Below, one piece after another: positions 27,367-54,648 of a stretch of DNA of 64,000 bases. Made by a program: the position numbers and the translations under genes. The DNA lies in contig CASFPZ010000016.1 of the NCBI GenBank assembly GCA_949296365.1, forward strand, positions 17,157-81,156. The letters run 5' to 3'. Positions within the stretch are counted from its first letter, which is position 1; every line of letters starts with the position of its first letter. Source of the stretch: an uncultured Akkermansia sp. (GTDB lineage: Bacteria > Verrucomicrobiota > Verrucomicrobiia > Verrucomicrobiales > Akkermansiaceae). The notes beneath the pieces were generated by a model. It was not told the DNA's origin and searched no databases. It was given only the letters and a program-made list of their open reading frames with translations.

Positions 27367-27971
27367 TTACAATTTCTTTAATATTTTCATTAAGCGCCCA
27401 AGTTCTGAGTAAGTATATTCTCTTCCACTTCTTTCTTTTTCATCCATAGACAAGTCTGCATTTTCCTCGGCTTTTTCAAGGCGTCCACCGTTTTTTCCAA
27501 ATAAGCATGTAACCCCTTACTCTTCTTGAAGAAAGCAATCGTCTTTTGATATTTTACACATTGATTTAAATCTTCTAACAACGATTTTTGCGTCTCATAC
27601 AAACGAGAAGTATAGTGGAAGTAATAAATAAAAAACAATTCTGTACAACGATGTGTATCAAAAAATTCGACCTTGCAGCATATGCCTTTCTTTGGCTTGT
27701 TGATAGGCTTGGCATACTTCTTCTTTAATTTTTGATATTGAGAACGCTCCGGTTCCACATTTTTCGTGTCCATATCTATGATGCAGAGAATATGACTGTA
27801 GCCCATATTCACACCTTCTTCAATCTTGTCAGTAAGTTCTTTAATGCTTGTATGTTTAGGGTCATCTGGCTTGATGGTTAACCGTTTGAATACATCACAC
27901 AACGAGTTGAAGTAGTAAAATTCCGTAGGACCTTCGCCTAAGATAAGAACTGTTTGTCATTGTTTTCCCAT
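27367..27971 (-). pseudogene. RloB/AbiLii-like TOPRIM protein, inactivated
   Basis: Reads MGKQ*QTVLILGEGPTEFYYF with an in-frame TGA at 27957-59. Adding one base to the T6 run at 27491-96 restores ...EKNGGRLEKAEENAD...YTYSELGRLMKILKKL*. Confidence 0.75.
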
Positions 27972-27972
27972 A

Positions 27973-29253
27973 TCAATCCTCCCAATTTATGAAGATACTA
28001 CCTAGCTCAGGTTTAGCTCCTAGACGACCAATATGATAGGAGTTGTAAAGAGACAAATTCTTGTGTAACCCAAAAGAGTCTCCACGAGAATACTCAGATG
28101 AAGCAGTTTCTCTTTTCTTTTCGACAAACCATACTACACCTCTGTTATCGTTGATTAAATCCTGAGAGAGGAGAGTTGTTTCTTGGCTTGTAATAATCAA
28201 CTGTGATTTTTCGGAACTGAAAATAAAAACGTTAAGATAGTAATATAATAGGTCGTAATGTAAATCCTCCCCTAATTCGTCAAGATAATACACATGAGGA
28301 CTTGTTATCATATCATATAGTGCTTCTAAAATACGTATATATTTTTGAGTACCTTTTGACTGCCACTTGAGAGGAATATCAAAATCTTCACTTTCCGAAT
28401 GATTGACAAATGTAATGGAATCAAAAGTAGATTTAAGCAACGCTTCTTTCATTCCCTCTGGGATATTTTCTTTTTGGATACGCTCGCGGAATTCATTAGG
28501 TACAAAACGATCTTCTACAATAGGCCTATATTCTAAAATATTCAAATCAGCTTTTCGAAGCATCATGTTATAAAACTTACGTTTTTTCGGGTCGCTATAA
28601 GCATTCTTTAATATTTCAACAAGACCTTTTTCCTCGTCATCATCCACATTGAGGTAATTATCCATCAACCAACTATGAAGCTTATTAAAGGGAGCTATGT
28701 CTTCTTTCAAGGCTGCTTTTCTGCACACCGACAAAACGCTATGATTATTCAACGTGTTCTCGCGAATGCTTTCTTGTGTTTTGACAAACAGTTTAAGGCT
28801 TGGTCCGAACTTGATTTCAGCCTGTACCTTATCATCGACAAATATGCGTTCGTAAAACAAAGACTTTGACTTGTTCGGATAGTAATACAGGCTCTCGTTT
28901 AGAATATACTTATCATTAAACTTCACCTCATAGTCATATCTTATGTCATCTGCATAAAACGACACATACATTTCGGTTGGGTCGTCTTTCGTTAGGGCAA
29001 AAGGAAGGTAGCCATGTATCCCCTGTTTGGCATCCGATTGGGGTAATACTAGCAAGCGAAAGACTTCATTTAATGCGATCAGCATATTTGATTTACCAGA
29101 AGCGTTGGAACCGAACAAAATCCCCAACTTGTATAAGAACACACCTTCAACAACCTCTGTTGCTAATTCCGAAGAAGGTCCTTTCGCTAAGAAATTTAAC
29201 TCTTGCTTATCGCGAATGGAAAGATAATTCTTTACACTAAATTTTCTTATCAT
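27973..29253 (-). CDS. AAA_21/ABC-type ATPase (RloA/AbiLi-like)
   Basis: MIRKFSVKNYLSI, GSNASGKSN Walker A, QSKGTQK signature, YYLDELGEDLH Walker B, YHIGRLGAKP C-terminus; directly upstream of the RloB-like gene. Confidence 0.88.
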   Translation of the reverse strand: MIRKFSVKNYLSIRDKQELNFLAKGPSSELATEVVEGVFLYKLGILFGSNASGKSNMLIALNEVFRLLVLPQSDAKQGIHGYLPFALTKDDPTEMYVSFYADDIRYDYEVKFNDKYILNESLYYYPNKSKSLFYERIFVDDKVQAEIKFGPSLKLFVKTQESIRENTLNNHSVLSVCRKAALKEDIAPFNKLHSWLMDNYLNVDDDEEKGLVEILKNAYSDPKKRKFYNMMLRKADLNILEYRPIVEDRFVPNEFRERIQKENIPEGMKEALLKSTFDSITFVNHSESEDFDIPLKWQSKGTQKYIRILEALYDMITSPHVYYLDELGEDLHYDLLYYYLNVFIFSSEKSQLIITSQETTLLSQDLINDNRGVVWFVEKKRETASSEYSRGDSFGLHKNLSLYNSYHIGRLGAKPELGSIFINWED

Positions 29254-29399
29254 AATAATCGATAGTGTTTTCTCATCTTTGACAGCTGAAAGGTAAAAAA
29301 ATATTACCTAATTTACTGTAAATCAGTGACTCACAACAAGAAAAAGAGTCTGCCCGTTATATATTATCATTTCCTCACTCTTAGTACTTGTTTAACTTT

Positions 29400-29745
29400 A
29401 CTATATCCCCCTGTTTGGCACAATATCCATTCCCAAGGACACGCAGATTTTGTCAAAATTTGATCGTTCATTTGCTGAGAAGCGGGTATAGAATATTTCT
29501 TTCTCTACAGGGCGTTGTTCCTATCATCTCTCTACGCAGAGTAGTGATAATCTGTTCCGCTGTCAACTCCACGGCGTGTTTTGTAAGTTCTGCCTCGAGC
29601 AATCTATGAACCAACGCTAAATAGCAGATTAGGAAATGAGCTCGAATCCGTCGCTCCTTCCAGTGGGAACAGGGGTGCGCCTTGAGAAGAGACTTTGAAA
29701 TTCGGAATGATTCTTCAATTAGCCAGAGGTTGCGATGGATTCGCA
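29400..29745 (-). mobile_element. IS1634-family transposase C-terminal remnant
   Basis: The minus strand translates to HRNLWLIEESFRISKSLLKAHPCSHWKERRIRAHFLICYLAL, matching the IEESFR...RIRAHFLIC pattern. Confidence 0.7.
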
Positions 29746-29852
29746 GTAACCCAACTAGGTATGACGATGGCTTACAGAGAAGGTTGAAGAAGTATTGATT
29801 TCAGAGAGAATTGATGTCTCTGCTAGTTGTTGCACAACGTTGCAACAAAGTC
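29746..29852 (+). mobile_element. IS903-type right-end fragment
   Basis: CCAACTAGGTATGACGATGGCTTACAGAGAAGGTTGAAG...ACGTTGCAACAAAGTC, near-identical to 27136-27235. Confidence 0.85.
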
Positions 29853-30003
29853 GATGCAATCAGTCATTTAGAGCAATTCAGAAACGATGATTCAGGACTG
29901 TTCAGACAGATCGAAGTCATTGATAATTGCACACACCATCAGCCTTACTCCGTCCTTGAATTTCAATCGGCAGATTGCTTTGTGTCAATTTACAATTAAG
30001 TAC

Positions 30004-30032
30004 TTGCGACAACACACGATATCGTGTATAAT
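30004..30032 (+). promoter_or_regulatory. RM operon promoter containing a perfect 14-bp palindrome (putative operator)
   Basis: TTGCGA (30004-09), 17 bp, TATAAT (30027-32); ACACGATATCGTGT at 30014-27; GAGGTG RBS before ATG 30060. Confidence 0.75.
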
Positions 30033-30059
30033 TAAACCTAATAAGATTGAGGTGATTAT

Positions 30060-31154
30060 ATGATTATCGCTCTTACAGAATACGCAAGAATGCACAACAG
30101 AAGTGGAGATACGCTCCGACGTCTTGCGGAGAGAGGCGCACTTAAAACAGCAAAAAAAATTGGGAGGAATTGGACTGTAGATAGTGAGGAAGAATATCCA
30201 ACAAAACGGCGGATAGCAACAAAACCAATCACAGTTGTATCTCTATTTTCTGGTTGTGGCGGCATGGATTTAGGTCTCATAGGAGGTTTTGATTTCTTGG
30301 GAAAGCACTATGCCAAGACAGGTTTTGAAATCATCTGGGCAAATGAAATCAGCCCGGCAGCTTGTAAGACCTATCGAGAGAACTTCGGTAACTATATCAT
30401 TGAAGGAGACATTGAGGAACAAATAGAAAATCTTCCTGCATCGGCAGATATCGTTGTCGGGGGATTCCCTTGCCAGGATATTTCCATCAACGGGAAAATG
30501 CTTGGTGTCAATGGAAAAAGAAGCAGCCTGTATACCTATATTGTCGAAACGGTAAAACGAATAAAACCTAAAGCCTTTATCGCCGAAAATGTAGGTGGTC
30601 TGTTGCTCAAGCAAAATGAGTATTCGCTTAATAAGATACTTGAAGATTTTAATTCTCTGGGATATAATCTAAGTTATCAACTATACCATGCTGAGGATTA
30701 CGGTGTGCCGCAGACAAGAGAGCGCGTCATTTTTGTTGGGACAAAAAAGGGGGTGCCTAACTTTGTTTCTCCAAAGCCAAGTGTCTTTGCTCCAATCACA
30801 GCTTACGAAGCGCTACATGATTTAGAAGAACATCCACAAGATAAAGCGTTTTCCCATATTTGGAGCCAAGCAAAAGTAAGTGGAGAGCAAGGAAACCGCC
30901 GCTTAGTTGCCAATCGTCCTGGCTATACTATACGGGCAGAGTGTCATGGAAATATTCAATTTCATTATGCACTTCCCCGTAGAATTTCCATGCGAGAAGC
31001 GGCTCGTATTCAGTCTTTCCCAGATTCGTTCTCTTTCCCTTGCGGGTTGCGGGAAACAGAAAGACAGATTGGAAACGCAGTCCCGCCTGTACTTGCATGG
31101 CATATAGCTAATTCTGTAAAAAATGCTATCGAAGGGAATAAGAATAGGGTATGA
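30060..31154 (+). CDS. DNA (cytosine-5) methyltransferase with an N-terminal excisionase-like HTH
   Basis: FSGCGGMDLG, GFPCQ, ENV, PQTRERV, QIGNAVPP. The first ~47 aa (EYARMHNRSGDTLRRLAERGALKTAKKIGRNW) look like a winged HTH. Confidence 0.92.
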   Translation: MIIALTEYARMHNRSGDTLRRLAERGALKTAKKIGRNWTVDSEEEYPTKRRIATKPITVVSLFSGCGGMDLGLIGGFDFLGKHYAKTGFEIIWANEISPAACKTYRENFGNYIIEGDIEEQIENLPASADIVVGGFPCQDISINGKMLGVNGKRSSLYTYIVETVKRIKPKAFIAENVGGLLLKQNEYSLNKILEDFNSLGYNLSYQLYHAEDYGVPQTRERVIFVGTKKGVPNFVSPKPSVFAPITAYEALHDLEEHPQDKAFSHIWSQAKVSGEQGNRRLVANRPGYTIRAECHGNIQFHYALPRRISMREAARIQSFPDSFSFPCGLRETERQIGNAVPPVLAWHIANSVKNAIEGNKNRV

Positions 31155-32164
31155 CAAAAAATGAATTTGAAGAAATATTAAACAGATGTTGTGTCCACTT
31201 GACAGATGAATCCCGAGCTACGGGATTTAAGACTTCTGCTCAATTTGAGAACCGTGTGCGAGAAGTTCTGAGTGAAATTACAAAGGACAACCAAAGCTTT
31301 CAAATTGATTTTAACCCACATCCACAAGCATTTCCTGACATTGCAATGGGTGAATACGGTGTTGAAGTAAAATTCACTATGAACGACACTTGGCGTAGTA
31401 TTGCCAATAGTGTTCTCGAAACCCAGCGTATTGATGAAGTCAAACATATTTATGTAGTGTTTGGGAAAATGGGGGGAGTCCCAGAGGTACGCTGGGGCGA
31501 GTACGAACAGAGCGTCATTCATGTCAGAACGTCTCATGTTCCTCGTTTTGAAATTGAACTTCCTTCTGAAAAAACTGACGTTAAAGAATCCTTATTTGCA
31601 CAGATAGGTATTCGGTATGATGACTTCAGAAAGCTTGATACGCAGGATAAGATGAAATACATCAGATCCTACGCAAGAAAGATACATCCCGATGGACGCT
31701 TGTGGTGGGTTGAAGATAAAGAAGATTCAGATGAACATACGACACCAGTTCAGGCACGCCTTTATACAAACCTCACAACGGAAGAAAAAACTCGCCTTAG
31801 AGCAGAAGCAGCGTTGCTTTGCCCAAGCATTGTTAAATCAGGGCGATCACGAAACAAATATGATGATATGGTACTCTATCTGTTAACCTATCACGGCGTA
31901 TTGTGCCATCAGGCACGAGATTTATTTTCTGCCGGTAGCGTTGCTAACCCTAAAAACGATAATGAGGGAGGTATCTATATTGAACGAGCCTTAAAACTCA
32001 TCGAAAATGAAATGAAAGCGGCAGCTCTCCGCATGGATAACGCTTTGTTCGTTGAATATTGGGGTGAGAGTGTTCCGCCAGAAAAAAGAATTAGACGTTG
32101 GCTTGAAAAGGCAGACGAGCTTGCAACAGAATGGATTCCATCAAAGAGCTTGTTTCTTGAGTAG
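31151..32164 (+). CDS. Putative type II restriction endonuclease (PD-(D/E)xK)
   Basis: FPDIAMGEYGVEVK catalytic-type motif; ATGA overlap with the MTase stop. Confidence 0.72.
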   Translation: MTKNEFEEILNRCCVHLTDESRATGFKTSAQFENRVREVLSEITKDNQSFQIDFNPHPQAFPDIAMGEYGVEVKFTMNDTWRSIANSVLETQRIDEVKHIYVVFGKMGGVPEVRWGEYEQSVIHVRTSHVPRFEIELPSEKTDVKESLFAQIGIRYDDFRKLDTQDKMKYIRSYARKIHPDGRLWWVEDKEDSDEHTTPVQARLYTNLTTEEKTRLRAEAALLCPSIVKSGRSRNKYDDMVLYLLTYHGVLCHQARDLFSAGSVANPKNDNEGGIYIERALKLIENEMKAAALRMDNALFVEYWGESVPPEKRIRRWLEKADELATEWIPSKSLFLE

Positions 32165-32228: not shown

Positions 32229-32560
32229 TTACCTGTTCAAATCATCAAATTGGATGTGATAATGGTTCTTCAAATGTTGGAGAATTTTTTCTTTGTTGTT
32301 TCCGCACAGAAGTTTGATTTCGAATATTTTGGCATCGACAAGCGTTCGGTACCACCAGCCTTGGAGAAACGTCCAGACAAACCCCGTTGCCCCATCCAGA
32401 AACGCACGTTTCCAGACATAACGGTAACAAAAATAAGCAAACGAGCGCCAAAACAGAGGCAACCGAGCATACTGGTGTTTTTTCATGCGTTTGCCAAGAG
32501 CCTGAAGGCTGATTTTTCAGAAGGACATCCGCAACGTCCGTTTGATAGACATTGAGGATA
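32229..32560 (-). pseudogene. 3' fragment of a GT2 family glycosyltransferase
   Basis: YARLPLFWRSFAYFCYRYVWKRAFLDGATGFVWTFLQGWWYRTLVDAK is a typical GT2 C-terminus; an in-frame stop lies just upstream and there is no room for the N-terminal domain. Confidence 0.65.
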
Positions 32561-32600
32561 CCTCAATACTGTTTTATCCGTTTTACTAGTTCTTCATGTT

Positions 32601-33677
32601 TTAGAATAGTTTCCGGCAAAACGGCTCTACAGGACGCAGGCCAGGCGTCGAGCCAATGGCCGTTTCTCGAGTAAGAGGATCCGGGAACAAATACAAGGCA
32701 TATCCACCAAAGCCACCGCCGCAGTACTTTCTCGCTATCGATCCTGCGATCTCCGGCAGATCCTCCATCCCCTCGTCGCGCTGCACACTGTAATACAGCG
32801 ATACCCCTGCTGCCAGCACCTCAATGTTGTGCTCGCTCACCCCTGCTCGCGCAATCAACGACGACTGTGCTATCCGCTCGTAATCCCGCTTGCGATCCGC
32901 CACTGACGGCGTATCGTGGTGTTGGTTCGTGTAATAAATCGCCATGCGACCCTGCAGAAAATCCCCCGTGCTCTTAAGATCCAGAACCGGAGATGGCCCA
33001 GAGCGCCAAACACACAACCCCGTTTCGTTGATCACGGCAGGATCCTGCCAACCAACACCAAGAGCCAATTCCGACTGCACCGGATCTCGTCCTTCCAACA
33101 TAGCCCAAGCTCCACTGCCCCCCATGCCTGCGCATTTCTCATACCCCCACTCCATCAGCGACACCATCGGCGTCACTGCGCAGTTGACAACATAAGCCCC
33201 AGGTCGCGCATAACGGGGCACATCAAGCCAACCACCAGCAAAATCGACGCGCAACGGCACTTCGTTGGGCGCCTTAATGCGCCGCACCAACATACTGGTT
33301 GACACCGGTTCAAAACGTGGAGGAGTCTTGGGCAGCACCGTATAGGCAGCGCCGACTCGGGCACACAACTCTCGTTTCAACTCGCCATACTGGTCGTCTT
33401 CAGTCACCGCCAGGATATCAGGACGTTCATCGATAAAATCCTGTTCGAAATCGAGACCTTTTTTCATACCCTTGCCGACAACCACTTTGTCGACCATGCG
33501 AAGAACCTTTTTGTGTTCGTCGGGAATGGAAGACTTACGATGTTTATGGATCCACAAGACCTCTGACGAGGCGAATGACACAACCAAATAATCGCCAAGG
33601 CTGCGAGCTTCTTCAAAAAACTGAATGTGACCAGCGTGGAGGATATCGTAACATCCAGATACAAATACTTTTTTCAT
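32601..33677 (-). CDS. Fusion of an HldC/RfaE2-like nucleotidyltransferase and an HddA-like GHMP sugar kinase
   Basis: VFVSGCYDILHAGH (HxGH), VSTS; then PLRVDFAGGWLD, AGMGGSG, GWQD, KYCGGGFGG. Confidence 0.8.
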   Translation of the reverse strand: MKKVFVSGCYDILHAGHIQFFEEARSLGDYLVVSFASSEVLWIHKHRKSSIPDEHKKVLRMVDKVVVGKGMKKGLDFEQDFIDERPDILAVTEDDQYGELKRELCARVGAAYTVLPKTPPRFEPVSTSMLVRRIKAPNEVPLRVDFAGGWLDVPRYARPGAYVVNCAVTPMVSLMEWGYEKCAGMGGSGAWAMLEGRDPVQSELALGVGWQDPAVINETGLCVWRSGPSPVLDLKSTGDFLQGRMAIYYTNQHHDTPSVADRKRDYERIAQSSLIARAGVSEHNIEVLAAGVSLYYSVQRDEGMEDLPEIAGSIARKYCGGGFGGYALYLFPDPLTRETAIGSTPGLRPVEPFCRKLF

Positions 33678-33704: not shown

Positions 33705-35489
33705 TTAGCCAATACTTTGTTTGTCGTAAAGTTCTCTGTAGAGTGGACACTTAGCATACAGGTCGTCATGCCGACCATCTGCGATAATACAGCCGTTCTC
33801 GAAAACGAGGATACGCTGGGCAATACGAATCGAGCTAAAGCGATGAGCAACAATAAAAGTCGTTCGCCCCATAACCAAACGATCCAACTCATCTTGGATT
33901 TTAGTTTCGCTTTCCGCATCAAGCGATGCTGTTGCTTCGTCCAAAATTAAAATCGGGGCATCCCTCAAAAAAGCTCGAGCAATAGCCACACGCTGTTTTT
34001 GGCCGCCCGACAAACCATCTCCACAATCTGCCAACTTTGTATAATACCCCTCTGGCTTCGATAAGGCAAATTCATGAACAGATGCCTTTTTCGCAGCTTC
34101 AATCACTTCTACATCCGTAGCAGCTGGTTTCCCCATCCGGATATTTTCAATAATTGAATTGCGGAAAATAAAAGGGCTCTGTGACACCAGAGCAATGTAA
34201 CTTCTTAAATCAGCTTTACGCACAGATCGTATATCAATTTCGTCAATGAGTATCTGTCCCGAGGTTACCTCGTAAAATCTGGGGATCAAACTGGCAAAAG
34301 TTGTCTTACCAGCGCCACTAGGCCCAACGAGAGCAACAACCTGCCCAGGAAGAATGTCAAGGTTGATATGCTTCAGAACAGGAGTCAGACCATCGTAGGA
34401 AAACGACACATCGCGAAAACTGATGTGCCCATAAACATCTTTCAAAGGGATAGGACTCACGGGATCCGGCATTGTATCGGGCTGATCGAGAATGTAACTC
34501 AACCGCTCCAAAGAGGCCTGAGCCTGTTTAAGACGGTTATACGTCATTCCCAAACGTTTGATCGGATCGTAACACATGAATAAAGCAGCAGCCAAAGCCA
34601 TAAATTCCGACTCAGTCATGCCAATTGCATTGCCACGAACAAGAAGATACCCCAATCCTAAGGCACATACACTTTCGAGAACCGGTAAAAGGAATTGTTT
34701 ATATTTGACGGCCTTCATTTGGATTCTGATGTAACGTTGAGTTACCAAACGAAAAACGGAAACTTGCTGTTCCTGCATGTTGTATGAGCGAACCTCTCGT
34801 TGCGAGCTGAGATTCTCTTGCGCAACCGCTGTTAAATCACCCAATTCCTTTTGTGCCCTCCGAGCTTTCTCAACCATACGTTTGCCAAAGAAGGCAATAG
34901 GCCAAATCGATAATCCTACAAACACCATATTCATTAACAAGATAGACATCTGCGAGTTTTCCATCGATTTGTATATCAAATAACCCAAAGCACTAACTAA
35001 AGTCATTGGTTGTTTGATCAAATCGTTAGCAACCGTCGTAATGCCAGCTTGCACGTTCTGTGTATCAGTTAACAGACGACTAATCAAATCTCCTTTTTTC
35101 TGAGTTTCATGAAAGGACAAAGGTAATGTTTGTAACTTGGAAAAAGCAGCCATCCGAATTTCTTCTAAAATTCGCATTCCGACAAAAGCAGTCAGATAAC
35201 CATTCACAAAAGTAGCTATTCCACGGATACTCATCACTACCGGCAGCATCAAACAAGCTACCACTAATACAATGAGCGGCAACGTCTCCTTCGAAACGTG
35301 ATTTACCAGGAATTCATGAATAAACGGCGGAAGTTTACTGTTGTCAAATACGACCGGAAATACTTGGTCGATCATCGTGGGAATACCAAATCCGCTTGCT
35401 GCCGACGCCACTACGCCAGAGGCTAGGGCTAGGATGAAAGGAATGATGAGTGGTCTTAAATAAACCAAAAAGCGAAGAAACTGTTTCAT
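33705..35489 (-). CDS. MsbA-like ABC transporter (TMD+NBD)
   Basis: GPSGAGKT, LSGGQKQR, ILDEATASLD, VAHR; six-TM N-terminal domain. Confidence 0.9.
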   Translation of the reverse strand: MKQFLRFLVYLRPLIIPFILALASGVVASAASGFGIPTMIDQVFPVVFDNSKLPPFIHEFLVNHVSKETLPLIVLVVACLMLPVVMSIRGIATFVNGYLTAFVGMRILEEIRMAAFSKLQTLPLSFHETQKKGDLISRLLTDTQNVQAGITTVANDLIKQPMTLVSALGYLIYKSMENSQMSILLMNMVFVGLSIWPIAFFGKRMVEKARRAQKELGDLTAVAQENLSSQREVRSYNMQEQQVSVFRLVTQRYIRIQMKAVKYKQFLLPVLESVCALGLGYLLVRGNAIGMTESEFMALAAALFMCYDPIKRLGMTYNRLKQAQASLERLSYILDQPDTMPDPVSPIPLKDVYGHISFRDVSFSYDGLTPVLKHINLDILPGQVVALVGPSGAGKTTFASLIPRFYEVTSGQILIDEIDIRSVRKADLRSYIALVSQSPFIFRNSIIENIRMGKPAATDVEVIEAAKKASVHEFALSKPEGYYTKLADCGDGLSGGQKQRVAIARAFLRDAPILILDEATASLDAESETKIQDELDRLVMGRTTFIVAHRFSSIRIAQRILVFENGCIIADGRHDDLYAKCPLYRELYDKQSIG

Positions 35490-37342
35490 GGGGTCTCCTC
35501 TTTGTTATGCATCTGTTGTTTATCGTACAAATCCCGATAAAGAGGAGATGTCTGATAGAGCTCCTGATGCGTGCCGTCTGCAATAATACGCCCTTGCTCA
35601 AATACGAGGATGCGATGAGCCATGCGAATCGTACTAAATCGATGGGCAATGATCAACGTAGTACGCCCAGTAGCTAGAGATTCCAATTGTTTCTGAATCT
35701 TGAACTCGCTTCGCATATCCAACGACGCTGTCGCCTCATCCAAAATCAAAACTGGAGCATTCTTCAAAAAAGCTCGAGCAATAGAAACTCGTTGTTTTTG
35801 TCCCCCAGATAACCCCTCCCCCGACTCACCAATCATGCGTTGGTATCCCCCCGCTTCTTCTCGTACAATGTCATCAATGACAGCTCGTCTACCCGCTTGG
35901 ATTACTTCACATTGAGAGGCTTCGGGCTTTCCGATTCGAATGTTATCTTCTACTGTACCACGGAACAACACGGGATACTGCGACACGTAGGCAATCTGCC
36001 TCATTAAATCCTTCTTTCTGTATTCACGAACGTCGATTTCATCAAGTTTCACGGAACCTTCGTTCACATCGTAAAAGCGGCAAACCAGATTGGCAAATGT
36101 CGTCTTCCCCGCACCACTCGGTCCCACCAACGCTACAATCTGCCCAGCCGGAATGTGAACATTGACATCGTTCAAAACGATCTTATTACCGTCGTAAGCA
36201 AAACGCACGTGGTCGAATTTAATATCGCCTCGGCACGATTTTAATTCTCGTGGTTGCTCAGGATCTGGCATGTCATCTGGTTGAAAAATAACTTCATTAA
36301 ATCGGTCGACAATAGCCATATTCATTGCCAATCTATTATGCACTGATCCCAAACGTTTTACTGGGTCATAGCAAAGATACATAGCTGTTGCCAATGAAAT
36401 AAAATCTTTCACTTCCATACCATTACTACTGCCCACATACAAAGCAATAGCCAAGGCAATAGCACTGGAGATTTCAACCATAGGAGTCAGAAGATTCTGC
36501 CATTTGACAACATTTAGCATCGTCTTCAAGAAATCCCTGATTTGAAACCTCACGTGCTTGATTTGTTCGCTTTCCATACCATATGCTCTAATATCTCGCT
36601 GAGAAGCCAAATTTTCCTGTAACGAAGCTGTAATGTCTCCCAATCCAGCCTGAGCCTTGCGTGCTTGGTTAAGCATTCTCTTTCCAATGCGCTGGATAGG
36701 AATGATACAAAATCCCACTAGAATCATATTAACCAACAAAATCAAGAACTGTTGGTTTCCACAAGCTTTGTAGACAAGATATCCCAGGGCTCCTAGCAGG
36801 GTCATGGGCTGCAAAATCATATCGTTAGCAACCTGCATAACCCCCTCTTGCAGAAATTGCGTATCGTGCATCAGGCGACTCAACAAGTCTCCGCTTTTGT
36901 TCTTTTCGTGGTACGATAAAGACAAAGTTTGAAACCGACTGTACAACTGAGTTCTGAAACGTTCTAATACACGCAACCCCGCTGAAGTTAAACAATAAGC
37001 GTTAACATAGCTTGCAATCCCTCGAACCACGACCACAGCAGGCAGAAAACATGCCGCCGCCCACACCACCACTTCATGTAAATTCTCTGCCCCAAAAATC
37101 GACACAAGGACCTCTTGCGTTGGCTTAGGCAACTGGTCGCGTTCGAAGACAATCGGAAATACTTTGTCGATCATGAAAGGGAAACCAAACCCTCCCGTAA
37201 GAGCCGCTGCAGCACCAGCTAAAATTGAAATTAACAACGTCCATTTATAAAAGCGAATATAGTAATCCCACAAATACTTCAAACGCCCCATCATTGTCGG
37301 CGACGGCGGATTCGTAGGCAAAGTAACAGTATCCCGAGTCAT
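35486..37342 (-). CDS. MsbA-like ABC transporter (TMD+NBD), tandem paralogue
   Basis: Same canonical NBD motifs; its stop overlaps the start of the next paralogue. Confidence 0.9.
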   Translation of the reverse strand: MTRDTVTLPTNPPSPTMMGRLKYLWDYYIRFYKWTLLISILAGAAAALTGGFGFPFMIDKVFPIVFERDQLPKPTQEVLVSIFGAENLHEVVVWAAACFLPAVVVVRGIASYVNAYCLTSAGLRVLERFRTQLYSRFQTLSLSYHEKNKSGDLLSRLMHDTQFLQEGVMQVANDMILQPMTLLGALGYLVYKACGNQQFLILLVNMILVGFCIIPIQRIGKRMLNQARKAQAGLGDITASLQENLASQRDIRAYGMESEQIKHVRFQIRDFLKTMLNVVKWQNLLTPMVEISSAIALAIALYVGSSNGMEVKDFISLATAMYLCYDPVKRLGSVHNRLAMNMAIVDRFNEVIFQPDDMPDPEQPRELKSCRGDIKFDHVRFAYDGNKIVLNDVNVHIPAGQIVALVGPSGAGKTTFANLVCRFYDVNEGSVKLDEIDVREYRKKDLMRQIAYVSQYPVLFRGTVEDNIRIGKPEASQCEVIQAGRRAVIDDIVREEAGGYQRMIGESGEGLSGGQKQRVSIARAFLKNAPVLILDEATASLDMRSEFKIQKQLESLATGRTTLIIAHRFSTIRMAHRILVFEQGRIIADGTHQELYQTSPLYRDLYDKQQMHNKEETP

Positions 37343-48399: not shown

Positions 48400-48840
48400 A
48401 TCAATATCAACTGACACTCAAAAGCCACCAAGATTGTGGGTCAACTGGTAGCATTTGGCTGCAATGTTAACAAAAGATACGTCAGTCGTTTAAATCATGA
48501 TATTCCATACTTCTCGAATGCATAAGTACAATCTCTGATTCTTCATGATATACTTCATCCGGGATTTCTCCTCTCTCTGTGGTACTTGACTATCTGTACC
48601 AGACTGGCGATGCTTTCTTGTTGCTCTTCTGTCAGAAGATGCCCGCGACACCCTCGTTCGCATATTCTCGCCTTCATCCCCTTTCTCACAAAAGCAATCT
48701 CCATGCCTACGTAGCCTGAATCCATATAAAACTCTTCCCTTTTAATATCATTGCAGTCAACTAGTTCTGATGAATACCTAGAATCATGCACAGAGGCAGA
48801 CGTCGTGGCATAACCTGTTATCAACTTGGTCTTGTAATTA
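48400..48840 (-). mobile_element. IS5-family transposase C-terminal remnant
   Basis: KLITGYATTSASVHDS...YMDSGYVG...ICERGCRGHLLTEEQ resembles the IS5 DDE region; broken downstream. Confidence 0.65.
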
Positions 48841-49241
48841 TTAGTGTCCGGTAAAACTTTTTGAGTAAGTAGTTCCCTTAAAGTAGTTTACTAGGAGAAA
48901 ATTGAGGACAATCAAACTCCAATTTTTGGGAGTCTTATTGTCGATCTGCCGCGCACAGTGTTGTAACAGAGTTTCAGAAACACGTAGAACTTCTTTGGAT
49001 CGGTTCCGACACTCAGATTTGATGGGGTCATGTGCGGCAAGAACTGTTATACTTCTTCAAAGGCGAGAAAGAGATTAGGTGAAAATGCTTAAAGAAGCCG
49101 ATAAGAAACCTCCAGAAACTCGCCTTGTTTTCATTGGACTTACTTTTTCCAGAAATCCATTCGCTACGTCCGTTTGCTAGGCATTGCGGAGGCCTTCAAT
49201 CAATTTGGTCTTATCCGTTTTTACCGGACACTAATAATAAA

Positions 49242-53169: not shown

Positions 53170-54648
53170 ATGGTTTCTTTTATCCGATATATCGATCTTT
53201 TTTCTCGTACCAAAATTCTCTGCATCGGAGATTTAATGTTAGATGTTTTCATCTATGGCAAGGTAAACCGGGTATCGCCCGAAGCTCCAGTACCAATACT
53301 GCTTGAATCGGGCGAGAGAAGCATGCCAGGTGGAGCTGGTAACGTCGCCATTAACTTAAGAGCCCTGGGATGCCAAACTTTCATTGCCGGAGTTGTTGGA
53401 GCTGATCGCAATGGCCAAGTTTTGCATTCTTCCCTTTGCGATCAAAATATTGATACGAATCTGCTGCTAACTAAGATAGAGTATCCTACTTCAGTAAAAA
53501 TTCGGTATGTCGCTGGTTCCCATCACCTCCTTCGCGTTGATAAGGAAGAAATGCTGACAGATCAAGATGCAAAATCCCATTTACTACGATTGATTAGTCA
53601 GAAAATTCCAGAGATGGACATCGTCTTATTGTCTGACTACGGAAAAGGCTTATTTGATCGGGAAATGTTATCTTCTTGTATTGCTCAATGTAAAAAATAC
53701 GGGAAACAAGTCATCGTCGATCCGAAACGAAACGACTATTCCTATTACGCTGGAGCTACGCTTGTTAAGCCCAATCTCAAAGAATTTATCGCGGCTATCG
53801 GGCATGAAATCCATCCGTCGCAACCTAGTTTCGATCGACAGGCTATACAATTCGGTCGTAAACTTTGCAACAAACATCAAATCGACAACCTCCTAGTAAC
53901 ACTGGGAGAATATGGTATGATTTTCATACCCGGAACAGAAGGAGAAGCCCTCATCCGTATGGATACACAGGCTCGAGAAGTTTTCGATGTATCAGGAGCT
54001 GGCGATACCTCTTTAGCAGTTTTGGGAGCTGCTATAGCTTCGGGAGCACCTATCCGGGACGCCATGGAATTGGCCAATATTGCTTCTGGCATTGTTGTCA
54101 GCAAATTCGGCACAGCTAGTGTTACCGACAAAGAGCTTAAAGAACAATTAAATGGCATACAAAAGCCAAGAAAATTGAGTAGTGAACAAGCTGCTCAATT
54201 AAGTCAGGAACTGCGAGCCCAAGGGAAAACCGTAGGATTCACCAATGGGTGTTTCGATATCTTGCATCCAGGCCACATCCAGTCATTCGAAAAGGCAAAG
54301 AAAGAATGTGACATCCTCTTTGTTGGACTCAACAGTGATGCCTCGGTTAAGCGCCTTAAAGGTAGTACCCGACCTGTCAATAATGAAAGTATTCGAACAG
54401 CCATGCTCTTAGGGTTAAAAGCTGTCGATTATGTTGTCGTATTCGACGATGACACGGCCCTCTCGCTCGTACAAAGTATTCATCCAGATGTTATTGCTAA
54501 AGAAGGATACCCTTTAGACAAGTGGCCTGAAGGACAATATGTTGTCTCGTATGGAGGTCGAGCTATTGAATTGCCGAGAATCGATGGATTCTCAAGCACT
54601 GAAATAATTCATAAACTTTCCAAATCTTCTCAAGAACGTTCATTATGA
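53170..54648 (+). CDS. hldE: Bifunctional heptose-7-phosphate kinase / heptose-1-phosphate adenylyltransferase
   Basis: GDLMLD...RVSPEAPVP, GGAGNV, LSDYGKG, VDPK, PNLKE, DVSGAGDT, FTNGCFDILHPGH, GLNSDASVKRLKG. Confidence 0.96.
   Translation: MVSFIRYIDLFSRTKILCIGDLMLDVFIYGKVNRVSPEAPVPILLESGERSMPGGAGNVAINLRALGCQTFIAGVVGADRNGQVLHSSLCDQNIDTNLLLTKIEYPTSVKIRYVAGSHHLLRVDKEEMLTDQDAKSHLLRLISQKIPEMDIVLLSDYGKGLFDREMLSSCIAQCKKYGKQVIVDPKRNDYSYYAGATLVKPNLKEFIAAIGHEIHPSQPSFDRQAIQFGRKLCNKHQIDNLLVTLGEYGMIFIPGTEGEALIRMDTQAREVFDVSGAGDTSLAVLGAAIASGAPIRDAMELANIASGIVVSKFGTASVTDKELKEQLNGIQKPRKLSSEQAAQLSQELRAQGKTVGFTNGCFDILHPGHIQSFEKAKKECDILFVGLNSDASVKRLKGSTRPVNNESIRTAMLLGLKAVDYVVVFDDDTALSLVQSIHPDVIAKEGYPLDKWPEGQYVVSYGGRAIELPRIDGFSSTEIIHKLSKSSQERSL

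Follow-up and report, generated by a model that had tools for sequence, protein, structure and literature searches.

A fused HxGH nucleotidyltransferase and compact GHMP kinase in Akkermansia, a probable L-fucose salvage enzyme

The DNA analysed here (hereafter the window, the whole stretch of 64,000 nucleotides) comes from contig CASFPZ010000016.1 of an uncultured Akkermansia sp. (assembly GCA_949296365.1), whose genome is 99.6% complete, and its feature of interest is a gene that fuses an N-terminal nucleotidyltransferase domain to a C-terminal sugar-kinase domain. This fusion gene is an intact open reading frame (ORF) of 358 amino acids on the minus strand (window 32601-33677), with an ATG start and a GGAG 9 nucleotides 5′ of it; its domains, motifs and neighbours are collected in Table 1. 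The first-pass annotation, made from the sequence alone, had described an HxGH-type transferase joined to a compact GHMP kinase, and Pfam, Foldseek, AlphaFold and VIA-align agree with it on an HxGH transferase followed by a GHMP kinase of the HddA/fucokinase branch.

The N-terminal domain provides the sole Pfam match of the protein, CTP_transf_like (PF01467; residues 6-132, E 4.3e-8), and carries the motifs HAGH (residues 14-17, window 33627-33638) and VSTS (residues 125-128). The glycerol-3-phosphate cytidylyltransferase TagD was matched by phmmer (1coz, E 1.5e-12, 33% identity) and also by Foldseek (1coz and 2b7l, template modelling score 0.80 on the target, 31-33% identity), which further returned 3glv and HldC (5xf2). 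The phosphate binders Lys44, Lys46 and Arg55 of TagD correspond to K45, R47 and K56, which show no variation in 20 close homologues; K48, likewise counted among the phosphate binders, and the VSTS motif are conserved as well.

The C-terminal 224 residues have no Pfam match, and the Pfam GHMP models do not score them, whereas GHMP_kinases_C does score related fusions. All three GHMP motifs could nevertheless be found, namely RVDFAGGWLDVP, GMGGSGAWA and GGGFGG. With a 69-sequence alignment including relatives of 40-50% identity, AlphaFold modelled the protein with a predicted local distance difference test score (pLDDT) of 96 and a predicted template modelling score of 0.87; with only 20 close sequences, the C-domain was modelled poorly (pLDDT ~30-45). 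VIA-align placed model residues 136-355 on many GHMP kinases with Z scores of 17-22 over 203-220 aligned residues, including mevalonate kinase (22.0), the heptokinase WcbL (21.6; 219 residues, 20% identity), galactokinase (21.5) and the fucokinase of FKP (19.9), while Foldseek ranked the FKP fucokinase (9iip) at the top, followed by WcbL, 3k85, 4n3o and then mevalonate kinases. The domain has both the two-lobed fold and motifs I-III of the GHMP superfamily. It spans only ~220 residues, against the 300-350 usual for the fold, with ~40 residues between motif I and the P-loop, so that the earlier word "compact" was apt; in the model it appears as a complete GHMP core from which the usual insertions have been trimmed away. 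Assigning a GHMP subfamily by fold ranking was tried and abandoned, the Z scores being tied within ~2.

Among PDB sequences, the family profile matched the FKP fucokinase best (E 9e-5, in three motif-level alignments), and the residue equivalences given here come from these short-motif profile-to-PDB alignments, which are not full length. In FKP, Arg592, Trp599, Asp601, Thr602, Gly759, Gln761 and Asp762 are the fucose-contact and catalytic residues; Trp599 stacks on C4-C5-C6 of fucose, kcat/Km falls more than 3000-fold in the W599A and D601A variants, and D762A has no activity (PMC11982464). Six of these seven contacts are identical in the window protein, where R592, W599, D601, G759, Q761 and D762 correspond to R143, W150, D152, G209, Q211 and D212, and the sole differing contact is T602, replaced by Val (V153). 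Each of the six is kept in at least 93% of the sequences with a residue at that position (203 family members, including distant sister fusions). WcbL reads GGGTDV where the window protein reads GGWLDV, with Gly in the place of the fucose-stacking Trp.

The window protein is 75% identical to Amuc_1591 of Akkermansia muciniphila, lies inside the Akkermansia clade of a FastTree tree, and shares with it the form of one ~360-residue polypeptide with an N-terminal HxGH domain and a C-terminal compact GHMP domain. One of the genomes used here is, presumably, that of A. muciniphila MucT. The fusion protein there has V176 and G326, and its gene is followed by MurJ, matching the published description of Amuc_1591 (PMC13313206). 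In that study, 12 of 12 D-arabinose-resistant suppressors of A. muciniphila were mutated in Amuc_1591 (V176G, G326E or a frameshift), and growth was restored by L-fucose or mucin; D-arabinose sensitivity relieved by L-fucose is a phenotype reported for A. muciniphila only (PMC13313206). The authors, who also report that A. muciniphila puts fucose in its own lipopolysaccharide (LPS), modelled Amuc_1591 on 9IIP and proposed a "putative fucose-nucleotidyltransferase" feeding LPS, regarding the protein as a nucleotidyltransferase and its C-terminal part as a sugar-binding domain (Gut Microbes 2026, PMC13313206). Our literature search found no further paper mentioning Amuc_1591. The window gene is an additional member of a family already flagged by the 2026 genetics; new in our analysis are the fcl-gmd-fusion-wecG contexts, the GT10 neighbour of the closest homologue and the pathway gap in the window genome, all described below.

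With a probability of about 0.65, the fusion gene encodes a bifunctional L-fucose salvage enzyme, for which we infer the kinase activity, the anomeric product, the nucleotide and the final acceptor as follows. The GHMP C-domain would bind free L-fucose, with Trp150 on C4-C6, Asp152 and Gln211 on the 3-/4-hydroxyls and Asp212 as the general base, and with ATP held on the GMGGSGA loop it would phosphorylate the anomeric hydroxyl to yield beta-L-fucose-1-phosphate. The HxGH N-domain could then combine fucose-1-phosphate and a nucleoside triphosphate into nucleoside diphosphate (NDP)-L-fucose and pyrophosphate. This product, probably GDP-L-fucose (the donor for known fucosyltransferases), would feed the fucosylation of envelope glycans, either the LPS core or a surface polysaccharide. 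In the window genome, the enzyme may be the sole source of activated fucose, drawn from host-mucin fucose.

The gene content of the window genome fits such a dependence on salvage. Neither Gmd (best 78 bits, cut-off 415) nor Fcl (best 76 bits, cut-off 500) was found in the genome, and FKP had no match in it. A GT11 fucosyltransferase domain is present in a 760-residue multidomain transferase on contig C81. Because Gmd, Fcl and FKP were not found while the GT11 domain is present, this genome shows no route to activated fucose besides the fusion. A GT10-like match of 22.9 bits, just below the cut-off, lies ~2 kb past the window end. Gmd was found in only 11 of the 21 sampled Akkermansia species, and de novo GDP-fucose synthesis has apparently been repeatedly lost or is patchy in the genus. 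The genome also contains a ManC-type guanylyltransferase, so the fusion is not needed for GDP-mannose. Two other roles were considered and rejected. A stand-in for ManC (mannose to GDP-mannose), prompted by the fcl-gmd linkage described below, was dropped because a ManC-type gene is present in the window genome and in 25 of 25 other Akkermansia genomes searched, and because D-arabinose mimics L-fucose, not D-mannose. A role in core metabolism (CoA, FAD, NAD or isoprenoid), prompted by the very high conservation, was dismissed on account of the patchy phylum distribution and the glycan operons.

The protein collection yielded more than 2,800 scored homologues and the species-genome collection (one genome per species) at least 578 confirmed stretches, and the fusion is therefore not a chance event. 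Among the matches listed, most belong to Verrucomicrobiota (Akkermansia, Luteolibacter, Haloferula, Opitutaceae and Chthoniobacterales) and some to Planctomycetota. All 21 sampled Akkermansia species have the fusion, as do 15 of 21 and 10 of 27 in the two best-sampled neighbouring families; it was not found in many other families of the phylum. The family is annotated only as "cytidyltransferase-like".

Gene context was counted in the 6-kb flanks of the best 80 of the at least 578 species-level loci. Gmd lies in the flanks of 38 loci, in 37 of them upstream and on the fusion's own strand, Fcl was also present in 32, and a WecG/TagA glycosyltransferase gene lies directly 3′ of the fusion in 38, forming fcl-gmd-fusion-wecG operons. 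Other classes of Verrucomicrobiota have a sister family with this architecture (~380 residues, 35-41% identity over the first 170 residues, GHMP_kinases_C detectable), which likewise adjoins gmd and fcl and is independent support for the fucose context. Directly 3′ of the closest genome homologue (80%) is a gene of the GT10 fucosyltransferase family, followed by a GT25 gene, and a second Akkermansia paralogue sits between genes for a WecG-family transferase and an acyltransferase. The neighbours in Haloferula rosea KCTC 22201 score 469 bits as Fcl and 592 bits as Gmd, the latter above its cut-off. The operon of this species and ~37 related loci contains genes for MarR-like, NusG-like, SDR, Glf, Ugd, Fcl, Gmd, the fusion, a WecG/TagA glycosyltransferase, CysC, CysD and CysN, and resembles a module that supplies precursors of a sulfated surface polysaccharide containing fucose.

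On a metagenome contig (L175:3514-4696), the two domains are encoded by separate genes, a 161-residue N-domain gene overlapping a 234-residue C-domain gene by 8 bp, and this natural split form supports the view that the two domains act as a pair. In the N-domain gene of this contig HSGQ replaces HxGH, and a GT2 gene follows the C-domain gene. Stand-alone C-domain proteins of the representative library were considered as a separate form and discarded: the one checked exactly is this split two-gene form, and at 76 of 80 metagenome loci an N-domain stretch abuts the C-domain. Relatives of the fusion with 45-56% identity are also carried by 46 contigs of the viral collection. On one IMG/VR contig (GC 0.29), the gene is flanked by a GNAT gene on one side and a GT2-like transferase gene on the other, and stands within a T4-type replication module (UvsX-like RecA, DnaB-like helicase and gp32) with QueC also present. 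It is a possibility that phages use the fusion enzyme to glycosylate DNA or the virion; a link to the phage arabinosyl-DNA pathway was rejected, as MurU-like/APH-type AfhE enzymes are used there (PMC13326640).

Several points weigh against fucose salvage. The published evidence on the family consists of suppressor genetics and modelling, and no enzyme assay is reported in the literature. The fold scores of mevalonate kinase, galactokinase and WcbL equal or exceed that of the fucokinase. The gmd-linked loci represent related lineages and are not independent observations, and the local context of the window copy (ABC exporters, a GT2 remnant and a defence islet) says little on the substrate. A partial second copy on contig C58 is adjoined by a gene of the GT9 heptosyltransferase family, with a trp operon after it. 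Alone among ~160 members bearing the N-domain, the window protein is without the four residues LLES after DEHKKV, which nearly all the others have; the deletion is in-frame and falls within a helix of the transferase domain, where AlphaFold confidence stays high, and it could weaken this domain.

The last such point concerns the nucleotide. To our knowledge, the HxGH-fold transferases characterised in this branch take CTP or ATP rather than GTP, and GDP-fucose is for this reason a product deduced from context; if it is made, the fusion would be the first guanylyltransferase of the HxGH fold that we know of. It is also conceivable, with a rather low likelihood, that the HxGH domain uses CTP or ATP, giving CDP- or ADP-L-fucose for the glycans of these bacteria and of some phages. 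We know of no CDP- or ADP-L-fucose in biology, and, if true, this would imply fucosyltransferases with a new donor specificity.

It is likewise unlikely that the fusion activates another sugar of similar shape (L-galactose, D-arabinose or another 6-deoxyhexose) and that fucose is merely a competing or secondary substrate. On the one hand, D-arabinose is evidently accepted in vivo (PMC13313206), the FKP contact T602 is Val in the window protein, and some operons also contain genes for Glf, Ugd and NDP-hexose 2,3-dehydratase, which serve other sugars. On the other hand, the other six contacts are those of FKP, including the Trp that stacks on C4-C6, the arabinose phenotype is rescued by L-fucose, and the tightest linkage is with fcl-gmd and with genes of the GT10/GT11 fucosyltransferase families.

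The description of the C-terminal part as a sugar-binding domain in the 2026 paper (PMC13313206), together with the heavy trimming of the domain, would suit a protein in which only the nucleotidyltransferase is catalytic, the GHMP domain binds a sugar or sugar phosphate, and fucose-1-phosphate comes from elsewhere. We consider this improbable, given that Arg143, the Ser/Gly P-loop, Asp212 and motif III are near-invariant among the 203 members, and that no other fucokinase was detected in the genome, which has no FKP match and, in a GHMP_kinases_N search, only two canonical GHMP genes.

The first-pass annotation had proposed a non-canonical NDP-heptose, or another NDP-sugar, for the envelope, made in parallel with a separate HldE. 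An NDP-sugar for the envelope is retained in fucose salvage, and the HldE-like gene is indeed present (Table 1). The heptose part, in which heptose-7-phosphate would be the substrate of the GHMP kinase and the next step would fall to an HldC-like transferase, could draw on rfaE_dom_II as the best NCBIfam match of the N-domain (44.5 bits), on the WcbL/HddA structures among the top fold matches and on the GT9 gene after the C58 copy. That rfaE_dom_II score is far under the cut-off of 181.5, and the HddA model NF049969 gave one weak match in the whole genome, in an unrelated GHMP gene, and nothing at the fusion gene. The heptose part is disfavoured because the fucose-contact residues match those of FKP and the invariant Trp of the family is Gly in WcbL; with an HldE-like gene already in the genome, and with the Amuc_1591 genetics and the fcl-gmd/GT10 context indicating fucose, we give it little credence. 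Finally, TagD and ECT are the closest sequences of the N-domain, but action on a non-sugar phosphate (glycerol-3-phosphate, phosphoethanolamine or a cofactor precursor), as in TagD, ECT or PPAT, is very hard to reconcile with family scores all far under their cut-offs (TagD 40.9 vs 165.4), a fused kinase with sugar-kinase residues, and a patchy distribution in glycan gene clusters rather than core-metabolism contexts.

Upstream of the fusion gene lie the two MsbA-like genes noticed in the first reading, which proved to be ABC exporter genes scoring 434 and 422 bits against TIGR02203, whose cut-off of 602 they do not reach. The adjoining exporter gene stops 27 nt short of the fusion ATG, and this short gap makes co-transcription likely. 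The pairing was not seen at the other loci examined, and the exporters represent context rather than a conserved partner. On the 3′ side, a 72-bp repeat fragment between the fusion stop codon and a GT2 remnant marks a rearrangement junction. This remnant, already recognised as such, keeps only the C-terminal ~78 residues of the glycosyltransferase, its catalytic N-terminal domain being gone; in another Akkermansia genome, an intact 301-residue GT2 gene is found directly 5′ of a fusion-gene copy with 74% identity.

The window copy is not in the ancestral place: 11 Akkermansia genomes have the fusion gene between one of 273 residues and murJ, while murJ of the window genome is on a different contig with a GT25 gene before it. 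The GC content at third codon positions (GC3) of the fusion gene is 0.563, the highest of all, against a mean of 0.41 (standard deviation 0.044) for 33 long window ORFs, and it increases along the gene from 0.45 (5′ end) to 0.68 (3′ end); this gradient suggests a mosaic origin. In other Akkermansia genomes the composition of the gene matches its surroundings. The partial second copy (genome G000, C58:3-491, at the contig start) covers residues 197-358 with 92% protein identity and has a GC3 of 0.54, and its DNA is ~95% identical to the window copy as far as ~codon 330 and divergent beyond. This copy may be a true second locus; the alternative is a strain variant that was collapsed in the metagenome-assembled genome. 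A remnant of the GT9 gene of C58 was sought in the window and none was found. The non-ancestral place, the foreign GC3, the partial second copy, the repeat fragment and the GT2 remnant together point to an origin in a higher-GC relative, through acquisition or gene conversion, with rearrangement afterwards.

The repeat itself (~400 bp) has dozens of copies in the genome with 70-85% identity, many of them exactly at contig ends, and a full copy lies in the window beside a DDE-transposase fragment. Rfam and tRNA scans of the repeat and the junction returned no Rfam family and no tRNA, and the repeat is without a long ORF; this is probably a mobile element of the non-autonomous kind, and one that breaks up the assembly. 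The GT2 remnant is adjoined by a defence islet of the restriction-modification/RloAB type, containing genes for an AAA_21 ATPase and an RloB-like protein, then a C5 cytosine methyltransferase gene overlapping a gene of 337 residues without a family match, which probably encodes the restriction enzyme.

Table 1 Features of the fusion gene and its surroundings (window coordinates)
Feature	Position	Strand	Basis or remark
N-terminal HxGH (cytidylyltransferase-fold) nucleotidyltransferase domain, residues 1-134	33276-33677	-	Pfam, phmmer, Foldseek
Compact GHMP sugar-kinase domain, residues 135-358 and stop codon	32601-33275	-	AlphaFold, VIA-align, family profile vs PDB, translation check
Motif I RVDFAGGWLDVP of C-domain	33216-33251	-	Translation
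P-loop GMGGSGAWA of C-domain	33102-33128	-	Translation
GWQD, with predicted catalytic Asp212	33042-33053	-	Translation
Motif III GGGFGG of C-domain	32703-32720	-	Translation
Two tandem MsbA-like ABC exporter genes	33705-35489 and 35486-37342	-	Pfam ABC_membrane and ABC_tran
72-bp fragment of ~400-bp dispersed repeat	32513-32584	.	blastn vs whole genome
GT2 glycosyltransferase remnant, 85-residue ORF	32229-32486	-	68% identical to residues 222-299 of 301-residue Akkermansia GT2
Defence islet	27390-32164		
DDE-transposase fragment	48555-48824		
Full copy of ~400-bp repeat	48836-49239		
HldE-like gene	53191-54624		435 bits over positions 5-473 of 475

Akkermansia strips fucose from mucin, and the sugar thereby connects it with its host. 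In about half of the sampled Akkermansia species no route to activated fucose other than the fusion is visible, and fucose salvage, if true, would make their envelope fucosylation dependent on host or dietary sugar and would also explain the D-arabinose toxicity. The enzyme could then serve as a compact one-gene tool for fucose nucleotides or their analogues, and one assay would re-annotate thousands of genes now called "cytidyltransferase-like". Real novelty would lie in the nucleotide that an enzyme of the HxGH fold attaches to fucose.

Among known systems, Amuc_1591 is the nearest, with the same two-domain architecture (363 residues, 358 in the window protein) and with the mutated V176 and G326 conserved as V172 and G322. 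It differs from the window copy in its place between the 273-residue gene and murJ, as the window copy follows two ABC exporter genes, and also in that the latter has a foreign base composition and the four-residue deletion; moreover, A. muciniphila MucT has Gmd as well, whereas the window genome does not. FKP of Bacteroides fragilis (PDB 5YYS, 9IIP and 9IIT; NCBIfam NF009948) resembles the fusion in the two-step chemistry proposed for one polypeptide and in a GHMP fucokinase domain whose sugar and catalytic residues, Arg/Trp/Asp...Gly-x-Gln-Asp, are shared. However, FKP has 949 residues and begins with a GTP-binding pyrophosphorylase of Rossmann-like and beta-helix folds, where the window protein has an HxGH domain of 134 residues and a different fold; the FKP kinase has ~360 residues against ~220, and the window protein reaches only 14 bits to NF009948 (motif I only; cut-off 721).

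HldE and HldC share with the fusion the combination of a kinase and an HxGH nucleotidyltransferase in one protein and a transferase fold resembling HldC (5xf2). In HldE, however, a PfkB-type kinase is N-terminal and the transferase C-terminal, an order that is reversed in the window protein with its GHMP-type kinase; the window protein has 34 bits over 43 residues to NF008454 (cut-off 521). The D-glycero-alpha-D-manno-heptose 7-phosphate kinase HddA/WcbL belongs with the window protein to the GHMP sub-branch of anomeric sugar kinases, but WcbL has Gly at the Trp150 position (motif I GGGTD vs GGWLD), ~345 residues and a separate GT-A type transferase partner, HddC, and the cut-off of the HddA model NF049969, without a match at the fusion gene, is 600. 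TagD (CTP:glycerol-3-phosphate cytidylyltransferase, 1COZ) is the closest to the N-domain in both sequence and fold, with HxGH, the Lys/Arg phosphate binders and an ISTT-like motif conserved; it is a single-domain protein of ~130 residues with a non-sugar substrate, unlike the two-domain window protein, whose score of 40.9 bits against a cut-off of 165.4 refers to TIGR01518.

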